Source of the DNA: Escherichia coli
GTDB taxonomy: Bacteria; Pseudomonadota; Gammaproteobacteria; Enterobacterales; Enterobacteriaceae
Reading direction: 5' to 3' (one strand)
Assembly (NCBI RefSeq): GCF_046105845.1
Contig: NZ_CP151004.1
DNA: 64,000 nucleotides
Shown here: in pieces, positions 21,484 to 31,927 of the stretch
How the letters are laid out: each line of letters opens with the position of its first letter
Numbering within the stretch: the first letter of the stretch is position 1
The notes under the pieces: model-generated
Database searches by the model: none
The model's input: the letters and a program-made list of their open reading frames with translations, nothing else
What the model was told of the DNA's origin: nothing
Program-made: the position numbers and the translations under genes

Positions 21484-22191
<708 letters not shown>

Positions 22192-22274
22192 TGCATTCAG
22201 CCCGCGTTGTCGCGGGCTTCCCACCTGTAATCCTCCCTGATTCTTCTCTGATACGGTGCTAAATAGTAACCAAT

Positions 22275-22297
22275 AAATGGTATTTAAAATGCAAATT
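22275..22297 (+). promoter_or_regulatory. Candidate NsrR-type operator upstream of yeaR
   Basis: AAATGGTATTT-A-AAATGCAAATT, an imperfect 11-1-11 inverted repeat resembling the NsrR consensus, about 70 nt upstream of the yeaR start. Confidence 0.35.
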
Positions 22298-22363
22298 ATC
22301 AGGCGTACCCTGAAACGGCTGAAATAAACCGTTTTCAGCGCATTCACCGAAGGAGGGAAAAGG

Positions 22364-22723
22364 ATGCTGCAAATCCCACAGAATTATATTCATACGCGCT
22401 CAACGCCTTTCTGGAATAAACAAACTGCGCCTGCCGGAATATTCGAACGTCATCTTGATAAAGGAACGCGCCCGGGGGTTTACCCACGCCTTTCCGTTAT
22501 GCATGGGGCGGTCAAATATCTCGGCTACGCTGATGAACACAGTACAGAGCCTGATCAAGTGATCCTTATCGAAGCGGGGCAGTTTGCGGTGTTCCCTCCA
22601 GAAAAGTGGCACAACATTGAAGCCATGACTGACGACACTTATTTCAACATTGACTTCTTCGTTGCTCCTGAAGTCCTGATGGAAGGCGCGCAACAACGGA
22701 AAGTCATTCATAACGGGAAATGA
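22364..22723 (+). CDS. yeaR: DUF1971-family protein
   Basis: 119-aa ORF; first gene of yeaR-yoaG pair. Confidence 0.85.
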   Translation: MLQIPQNYIHTRSTPFWNKQTAPAGIFERHLDKGTRPGVYPRLSVMHGAVKYLGYADEHSTEPDQVILIEAGQFAVFPPEKWHNIEAMTDDTYFNIDFFVAPEVLMEGAQQRKVIHNGK

Positions 22724-22726
22724 ATC

Positions 22727-22909
22727 ATGGGCAAAGCAACGTATACCGTGACCGTCACCAATAACAGCAATGGCGTTTCTGTCGATTATGAAACAGAGAC
22801 GCCGATGACTTTGCTGGTGCCAGAAGTGGCGGCTGAAGTGATAAAAGATCTGGTGAATACCGTGCGTTCTTATGACACGGAAAACGAACATGATGTTTGT
22901 GGTTGGTAA
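22727..22909 (+). CDS. yoaG: DUF1869-family small protein
   Basis: 60-aa ORF 3 nt after yeaR. Confidence 0.8.
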   Translation: MGKATYTVTVTNNSNGVSVDYETETPMTLLVPEVAAEVIKDLVNTVRSYDTENEHDVCGW

Positions 22910-23056
22910 TTATCTCTGATCGTTGATGGCGCAATTTCTGCGCCATCGCAAAAAAATCGTCCGTGATGCTCGTCACAAATCTTGCCCTCCCGATGTTGTG
23001 CTATGCTTTTTATCAGCGACTAACCCGCTAATGCAAAACAGATAAGTGAGGAAACA

Positions 23057-23305
23057 ATGGGCATTCTGTCATGGATTATTTTTGGGCTTATTGCCGGTAT
23101 TCTGGCGAAGTGGATCATGCCAGGTAAAGATGGTGGTGGATTCTTTATGACTATCCTGCTGGGGATAGTCGGTGCCGTAGTCGGCGGATGGATCAGCACG
23201 CTGTTTGGCTTTGGTAAAGTCGATGGCTTCAATTTTGGCAGCTTCGTGGTTGCCGTTATTGGCGCGATTGTCGTGCTGTTTATCTACAGAAAGATTAAAA
23301 GTTAA
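23057..23305 (+). CDS. yeaQ: GlsB/YeaQ/YmgE-family small membrane protein
   Basis: 82-aa glycine-rich two-TM ORF (MGILSWIIFGLIAGILAKWIMPGK). Confidence 0.85.
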   Translation: MGILSWIIFGLIAGILAKWIMPGKDGGGFFMTILLGIVGAVVGGWISTLFGFGKVDGFNFGSFVVAVIGAIVVLFIYRKIKS

Positions 23306-28234: not shown

Positions 28235-28738
28235 TTACGCAGTGCGGCGGAAATTGACCAGTTCTGGTTGCGCAATGCGCAAATAATCCGCGGTTTTCAA
28301 AATAACGGATTTATCCAGCATGCCTGCATTGAAGGCGATTTCATCAAATCGTTCGAAGAGTAGGGGATCGGCAACCAGTTTGAGTTTTGGATGGAAGCTG
28401 AAAGGGGGGATCGCGCCGAAGACACAGCCTGTGAGTTCATCGACTTCCGCCGGGCTGGCCAACGAAGCGCGTAATCCGCCTATATGGCTGGCGAGTTGGC
28501 TCAGATCGGCCTGTTGATCGGCCGCGAGGATCGCCAGAACATGTTGATTTACACCATTGCCTTTGACTTTACATACCAGTGCCTTAGCCCCCTGGCCTAA
28601 AGCGGTGCCACGAATTTCTGACACCGCTTCACATTTACCTACCGCTTCATGGGTAACGACGCGGAAGTCAGCACCTTCTTGTGATAATAAAGCGATTAAC
28701 CGCTGATGCGTCACGCTTCCTTTAGCCATTTCAGTCAT
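28235..28738 (-). CDS. yeaK: YbaK/ProX-family aminoacyl-tRNA deacylase
   Basis: 167-aa ORF. Confidence 0.85.
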   Translation of the reverse strand: MTEMAKGSVTHQRLIALLSQEGADFRVVTHEAVGKCEAVSEIRGTALGQGAKALVCKVKGNGVNQHVLAILAADQQADLSQLASHIGGLRASLASPAEVDELTGCVFGAIPPFSFHPKLKLVADPLLFERFDEIAFNAGMLDKSVILKTADYLRIAQPELVNFRRTA

Positions 28739-30451: not shown

Positions 30452-31927
30452 TTAAATATGATGAATAATCACTTTGTTGCCCCCCTCGCTTTTCGCTTCG
30501 CGTAAGGCTTTATCTGCTTCCGTCATGACAAGCGAGATATTACGTGTGTCACCCGTTGAAAAAACCGTGCCAATACTGATGGTCATTTGCTCAGGAACAT
30601 CATATCTGTTACTAAAGCCGGTCAGGAGTTCGACATTTTTACGCATACGATCCGCAATGATTTTTGCCTGGGCACTATTGAGTTCGGTAAATAGCAAGCC
30701 AAACACCTCACCCTCCAGTCGCGCTAAAATATCATCGGGGCGGATGCTTTGCTGGATAATATCGACAATTGATACCAGCACTTTATCACCCACACGATGT
30801 CCCCATTGGGCATTGATGCGTTTGAACTGATTAATATCAACCAGCATGACACAAAAGTCCTTAACAACAGGTCGCGACAATAATGACTCTACGCTGTTGA
30901 AAAAGTAGCGCCGATTATAAATATTGGTCAGTACATCATGAACTGCCAGTTTGCTGGAGAGTTGCAGTTCCTGAAAAATGTTATAAATCAGAAAAGACAC
31001 AACAAACAGTTTACTGGAGACTTCAATCCCGCGACTGATATACCAGATGGTGTAATTATACTCATCCAGAGTTAGTAGAAGTAAGTTGCAGCATAGCGAT
31101 GCCAGACATAATAATGCTATTAACGGCCATAGTTCGCTGGCTAATCGTGTACGCATGATAATAAAGAACAGTAAAAATGCCCACAGACAAACCAATATTT
31201 TTGTATAGTTGATTCCCCAGGTCGCAGTATGGTTGTCCGGACAGTAATCGACGACATACAAAGAATAGTCAGCGTTATAACTGCTCAGATTGTGTGCCAG
31301 AAGGGGAAAAACTAAAAAAGGAATCAGCGCCAGTAACAGAATGCCAGTTTTTTTCTTATTGTTGTCAAGGATGTTGTCTTTCCCATAACAAAAGAGCGCC
31401 AGCGAGGTTAAACAAATGAAACTTAGTTGGCGGAAAATATAGAAAATAGAAACATCATTCGACTTTGTCTGGATCAGTGTACTGCCGTTGATTGGTTTAT
31501 GGATAATTACAATGGTTTCAACTAAATAGATAAGGCCACTTAAAAATGCAAGGCTTAAAATGAGTGTTGGTAAAATTTGTTTGTTAGTGAAATACTTCAT
31601 TAACATGAAAAGAAAAATGACGGCGTTAAGGAAAAACAAAGCCACAACAACCATCAGGTAATTCATCTGTGGGATGAGTTTTACATTCGTGTTTTCGTTA
31701 TATAAGGTAGTAATGCAAAATAAAATTAACGTCAGCAATAAGCTGAAAATAAAAAAGCCTTGAGCTTTTAATTTTTGTGTACCCATAGAAGCCATAAAAA
31801 GGAGAGCAATGTGAGTGCTGGATTTTATTGATGGCAGAGATATATAGTTTTGACCAGGATCAATTTTCGTTAACGATAAAAAATATTTAAAGAATAACCC
31901 CAGGGAAACACGTGTTGACCGAATCAT
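30452..31927 (-). CDS. cdgI: Degenerate GGDEF-domain membrane protein (probable c-di-GMP binding protein)
   Basis: 491-aa ORF (yeaI); multi-TM N-terminus; GGDEF position reads EGEVF. Confidence 0.85.
   Translation of the reverse strand: MIRSTRVSLGLFFKYFLSLTKIDPGQNYISLPSIKSSTHIALLFMASMGTQKLKAQGFFIFSLLLTLILFCITTLYNENTNVKLIPQMNYLMVVVALFFLNAVIFLFMLMKYFTNKQILPTLILSLAFLSGLIYLVETIVIIHKPINGSTLIQTKSNDVSIFYIFRQLSFICLTSLALFCYGKDNILDNNKKKTGILLLALIPFLVFPLLAHNLSSYNADYSLYVVDYCPDNHTATWGINYTKILVCLWAFLLFFIIMRTRLASELWPLIALLCLASLCCNLLLLTLDEYNYTIWYISRGIEVSSKLFVVSFLIYNIFQELQLSSKLAVHDVLTNIYNRRYFFNSVESLLSRPVVKDFCVMLVDINQFKRINAQWGHRVGDKVLVSIVDIIQQSIRPDDILARLEGEVFGLLFTELNSAQAKIIADRMRKNVELLTGFSNRYDVPEQMTISIGTVFSTGDTRNISLVMTEADKALREAKSEGGNKVIIHHI

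Follow-up and report, generated by a model that had tools for sequence, protein, structure and literature searches.

The inverted repeat upstream of Escherichia coli yeaR-yoaG is a known NsrR operator that overlaps the NarL site of the promoter

An imperfect inverted repeat of 11-1-11 geometry in front of the small operon yeaR-yoaG raises the question whether nitric oxide (NO) or nitrate controls these two genes through a binding site for the regulator NsrR. The analysis was carried out on a window of 64,000 nucleotides, i.e. the whole stretch of Escherichia coli DNA under study. The part of interest, at 20.4-24.7 kb of the window, is the dmlR-leuE-yeaR-yoaG-yeaQ-yoaJ-yoaK-dgcP region of E. 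coli, the gene names being those of the RefSeq annotation of E. coli genomes. A 1.9-kb query around the site found a match with 95-100% identity in 5,421 of the 5,426 complete E. coli genomes.

Both genes lie on the plus strand as open reading frames that are also present in the RefSeq annotation and are recognized by Pfam. In the case of yeaR (22364-22723), the product is a protein of 119 aa with a DUF1971 domain of TehB-related fold (PF09313, E = 4.6e-23), and its length is the same as that of PDB 3bb6, an entry titled ‘Uncharacterized protein yeaR’. In the case of yoaG (22727-22909), it is a protein of 60 aa with a DUF1869 domain (PF08956, E = 4.7e-33; PDB 1nei). The original prediction had described the pair as a two-gene unit of unknown function, and this is accurate: structures have been solved for both YeaR and YoaG, and no function has been assigned to either. 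The biochemical function of the two proteins is a matter that the operator finding does not address.

The surroundings of the operon could be read off the sequence. The Shine-Dalgarno sequence of yeaR, AAGGAGG, is found at 22350-22356 on the plus strand, and its GAGGG core is kept in the alignment of orthologous loci. On the leuE side, the upstream limit of the yeaR control region is a GC-rich hairpin, GCCCGCG-TTGT-CGCGGGC, located 3' of the leuE stop codon (22200-22217, plus strand); according to the alignment, most orthologues have a GC-rich hairpin at this position. The terminator scan left the leuE-side hairpin unflagged because its T-run is weak. Additionally, a perfect 9-bp hairpin, GATGGCGCA-ATTTC-TGCGCCATC, was observed 3' of the yoaG stop codon at 22925-22947. 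Since it is followed by GCAAAAAAA instead of a T-run, there is no canonical intrinsic terminator at 22925-22947 on either strand, and the terminator scan flagged none there.

The repeat itself was found as described. The 23-mer AAATGGTATTTAAAATGCAAATT occupies positions 22275-22297 and can be written as AAATGGTATTT-A-AAATGCAAATT, with 8 of 11 positions paired between the arms. The ATG of yeaR follows at 22364, at a distance of 78 nt from the centre of the site (22286) and of 66 nt from its 3' edge, which makes the earlier description ‘about 70 nt upstream of yeaR’ a fair one. The symmetry of the site was nevertheless dropped as evidence. The window contains 106 repeats of 11-1-11 geometry with at least 8 of 11 pairs, compared to 77.5 ± 9.2 in shuffled sequences; repeats paired as well as this one are common in the window and do not go beyond chance. 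The agreement with the NsrR motif, in contrast to the symmetry, does go beyond chance.

This match was quantified with a symmetrised weight matrix, constructed from the 16 distinct ChIP-seq-positive NsrR sites in Table 4 of Mehta et al. 2015 with yeaR excluded. The yeaR site scored 21.1 bits and ranked first among the 63,978 window positions; the runner-up reached 12.3 bits. Placed among the 16 training sites, which range from 12.7 to 30.3 bits, it would come sixth, and a score of 21.1 bits was reached anywhere in just 1% of simulated 64-kb Markov-1 sequences. By this matrix match, with a score inside the training range, the site belongs to the enterobacterial 11-1-11 NsrR class; an idealised NsrR consensus is matched at 16 of 22 positions. 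The NsrR motif scan that had been proposed as a check on the original prediction was therefore strongly positive, with a score clearly above background. As for the runner-up, AAGAAGCGTTATTACTGCATCTT at window positions 59877-59899, its score is just under that of the weakest ChIP-positive training site.

The flagged feature is already known: it is the characterised NsrR operator that overlaps the NarL site of the yeaR-yoaG promoter. Table 4 of Mehta et al. 2015 contains an identical 23-mer as the NsrR site of yeaR, which has ln P = -17.05 and ranks 11th in the genome of CFT073 (PMC5320621). The same paper treats the regulation of yeaR by NsrR as established, with reference to Filenko 2007, Pullan 2007 and Lin 2007, and in this cited literature yeaR is reported to be derepressed when nsrR is mutated and to be induced by NO. 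In nitrate-grown cultures yeaR was induced 160-fold and yoaG 168-fold, which places both among the most nitrate-induced transcripts (PMC5320621). NsrR ChIP-seq in CFT073 gave no peak at yeaR, judged by its authors to be a probable false negative (PMC5320621). Competition by NarL or Fis for the shared DNA, or the growth condition, is a possible reason for the missing peak; taken as the actual explanation, competition of NarL and Fis with NsrR is a tentative proposal and, on balance, a rather doubtful one.

Other literature treats yeaR-yoaG of Salmonella as an operon of the NsrR regulon and yeaR-yoaG as the model of a single-site NarL promoter. The yeaR-yoaG promoter has also served as the nitrate-sensing trigger of biosensors for inflammation of the gut. 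Overall, this is a well-studied case of overlapping nitrate (NarL) and NO (NsrR) control. The present finding consequently carries little weight as a discovery, and shows that a genuine operator can be picked from raw sequence.

The 7-2-7 NarL activator site of yeaR, TAACCAATAAATGGTA, is centred at -43.5 and was resolved in a cryo-EM complex of NarL with RNA polymerase, just upstream of a yeaR -35 element described as ‘intrinsically weak’ (PMC10853779). An exact match to this site is found in the window at 22267-22282. The left arm of the NsrR site contains the right NarL heptamer, AATGGTA, and the NsrR site covers half of the NarL site. From the published NarL centre as the one anchor, the remaining promoter coordinates were computed, all on the plus strand. 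The inferred transcription start is the G at 22318, which is invariant in an alignment of 14 species. The putative -35 hexamer, TTTAAA (22283-22288), is weak and lies inside the NsrR site. The putative -10 hexamer is TACCCT (22306-22311), with TAACCT in most orthologues, and belongs to a block, GCGTA(A/C)CCT, that is kept throughout the enterobacterial alignment. Counted from the predicted start, the NsrR site extends from -43 to -21 with its centre at -32. It is thus placed over core promoter elements, covering the inferred -35 region and most of the spacer. The computed centre agrees exactly with the work of Lin, Bledsoe and Stewart, whose abstract of 2007 reportedly has the NsrR operator centred at position -32.

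Two motif scans of the promoter are to be read with this geometry in mind. A scan for sigma-70 consensus promoters found none at yeaR, the best candidates being TTTAAA and TACCCT; this fits an activator-dependent promoter with a weak -35 element and is not counter-evidence. A scan of the window with the NarL consensus (TACYYMT heptamers, 2-bp spacer) detected TAACCAATAAATGGTA with 4 mismatches in 14 positions but did not single it out, as 220 window positions were as good or better. The NarL assignment therefore rests on published experiments. Nitrate control of yeaR-yoaG, which had been attributed to the inverted repeat as well, is real, but it works via the separate, overlapping NarL 7-2-7 site and not via the 11-1-11 repeat.

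Elsewhere in the window, two near-consensus NarL 7-2-7 matches with one mismatch each were observed, TACCGCTTCATGGGTA at 28640-28655 and TACTCATCCAGAGTTA at 31059-31074. These lie inside long minus-strand open reading frames (28235-28738 and 30452-31927, respectively) and were rejected as NarL sites, being probably chance matches.

To describe the site across genera, species-representative genomes were scanned for YeaR, which yielded 26 full-length loci from Escherichia species, many Citrobacter, two Salmonella enterica subspecies, a Raoultella-labelled MAG and Silvania. Each locus was scored over its full length of about 3.3 kb, and in all 26 the top matrix match, with 12.5-23.8 bits, preceded the yeaR ATG by 73-84 nt. 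The orthologous sites vary in sequence yet retain the motif, e.g. AAATGGTATTTTAAATGTATATT and TTGGTGTATTTAAAATGCCAGTT. Silvania, the most distant of them (68% YeaR identity), has AAGTCGCATTTTAAATGCATTTT, which is nearer to the consensus. The right arm retains AAATGC..TT in all genera, and the unconstrained central base of the site is variable among orthologues. In the alignment of 14 species, the block formed by the NarL site, the NsrR site and the -10 element is the only island of conservation in the stretch from the leuE hairpin to the ribosome-binding site.

The NarL heptamer that overlaps the site, together with the -35 region, could account for part of this conservation. The conservation of each column was compared with the information content of the matrix for the 13 distinct orthologous sites, which gave a Spearman coefficient of 0.50 (p = 0.016). 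For the centre and the right arm, thus outside the NarL site, the coefficient was 0.63 (p = 0.028). Because conservation tracks the matrix information, including the half of the site outside the NarL site, the comparison of orthologous sequences argues for selection on the NsrR motif itself, beyond the overlapping NarL heptamer or -35 region. The predicted NO control through an NsrR operator is hence upheld by the motif score, by the conservation in 26 of 26 loci and by the published identical site.

Some variation in the neighbourhood of the site should be added. In Citrobacter sedlakii, a Citrobacter MAG and a C. amalonaticus-labelled strain (L007, L015 and L024, at about 1400-1431), the NarL site reads TGCCCCTTTTGGTGTA, which is still 7-2-7-like. 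The left NsrR arm of this C. sedlakii-type lineage is TTGGTGTATTT, and NsrR scores of 20.7-21.3 bits are kept. The overlapping NarL and NsrR sites appear to change together as a pair in this lineage. In E. coli AMSCJX03 (NZ_CP058355.1, L030 1-120), an IS1A inserted at about -53 directly adjoins the NarL site on its upstream side and takes the place of the intergenic DNA nearest to leuE; leuE is not annotated beside yeaR there.

The 23-mer could also have been kept for the NarL heptamer, for an AT-rich tract bound by Fis and for the -35 element and spacer, so that the resemblance to an NsrR site would be incidental and the effect of NsrR indirect. The left NsrR arm and the NarL site do overlap, and as a mere inverted repeat the 23-mer is within chance. 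Also, Fis is reported to bind over the yeaR NarL site and to repress in rich medium (Squire et al. 2009). The missing yeaR peak in CFT073 points in the same direction (PMC5320621). However, the right arm is located in the promoter spacer, where sigma-70 promoters require no specific sequence, and it still reads AAATGC..TT in all genera, with a conservation that follows the NsrR information profile. Silvania is without the E. coli-type left heptamer of the NarL site, yet has a better NsrR site. Moreover, the score of the yeaR site is 9 bits above all else in 64 kb, and published work treats the regulation by NsrR as direct (PMC5320621). An incidental resemblance is, in our judgement, very improbable.

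Even less credit can be given to the idea that the palindrome mainly serves another regulator, e.g. an IscR-like Rrf2 protein or some other binder of AT-rich palindromes. Related AT-rich palindromes are indeed bound by Rrf2 proteins, but the matrix was derived from NsrR ChIP-seq peaks, and the yeaR site falls within their score range. The operon is part of the NO- and nitrate-induced gene set ascribed to NsrR (PMC5320621), and the literature examined holds no evidence for another factor.

Altogether, it is highly probable that positions 22275-22297 are the operator of NsrR, the [Fe-S] NO sensor of the Rrf2 family, in the yeaR-yoaG promoter, and that the regulatory model as a whole applies. The sequence, the motif score, the geometry relative to NarL and the conservation across genera are observations of this analysis; NsrR dependence, activation by NarL and induction by nitrate are taken from the literature. 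In this model, holo-NsrR bound to the operator in the absence of NO would block both RNA polymerase and phospho-NarL, supposedly by steric exclusion, because the site covers the -35 element, most of the spacer and the promoter-proximal NarL heptamer. NO would damage the cluster, upon which NsrR would leave and the promoter would become free. Full expression would then require phospho-NarL, formed on nitrate or nitrite via NarX/NarQ, and NarL would recruit RNA polymerase through the alpha C-terminal domain. With these two inputs, the yeaR-yoaG operon would integrate nitrate (activation) and NO (derepression).

The leader of the operon showed a further structural element. A hairpin at its 5' end, GCUGAAA-UAAACCGU-UUUCAGC (22318-22339, plus strand), starts exactly at the inferred transcription start. 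The first 34 nt of the leader fold at -9.2 kcal/mol (z = -3.3); the fold of the whole 61-nt leader is not significant (z = -1.2). The leaders of Citrobacter and Salmonella have a hairpin at the same place (loci L002-L026, at about 1455-1490) with different stems, these being CAGCGA/UCGCUG, GCGGUU/AAUCGC and CAGCGGUG/UAUCGUUG. Averaged over 24 distinct leaders, z was -1.8. When the leaders were aligned with MAFFT, the stems of the different lineages did not fall in register, so that RNAalifold gave no consensus structure, and no Rfam family matched anywhere in 22150-23060. The notion that this hairpin is selected as an mRNA-stabilising or otherwise post-transcriptional element is speculative, and we lean against it; if true, it would mean an extra layer of control on an operon induced by NO and nitrate.

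When compared to known systems, the site is the same object as the NsrR operator of yeaR-yoaG in E. coli K-12 (Lin, Bledsoe and Stewart 2007; Filenko et al. 2007). CFT073 and a K-12 derivative show no difference from the window in the 23-mer, the NarL site or the promoter core. Compared to K-12, the strain of the window has one changed base at about -55, upstream of the NarL site, and another in the leader hairpin; otherwise there is no substantial difference. With regard to the NarL-dependent, Fnr-independent promoters, yeaR and ogt have in common a single 7-2-7 site abutting the -35 element and activation through the alpha C-terminal domain of RNA polymerase, whereas ogt differs from yeaR in that two NarL sites are required. 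This likeness concerns the overlapping partner element and not the flagged 11-1-11 repeat. For the repeat itself, the nearest relatives are the ytfE, hcp and hmp operators, which have the 11-1-11 geometry and the conserved positions AA..G.ATTT n AAAT.C..TT in common with the yeaR site and, like it, overlap core promoter elements, resulting in repression. With the same matrix, the yeaR site is weaker than that of ytfE (21.1 vs 30.3 bits). In contrast to the canonical ytfE, hcp and hmp operators, yeaR is without a ChIP-seq peak in CFT073 and is unusual in sharing its DNA with the site of an activator, NarL.
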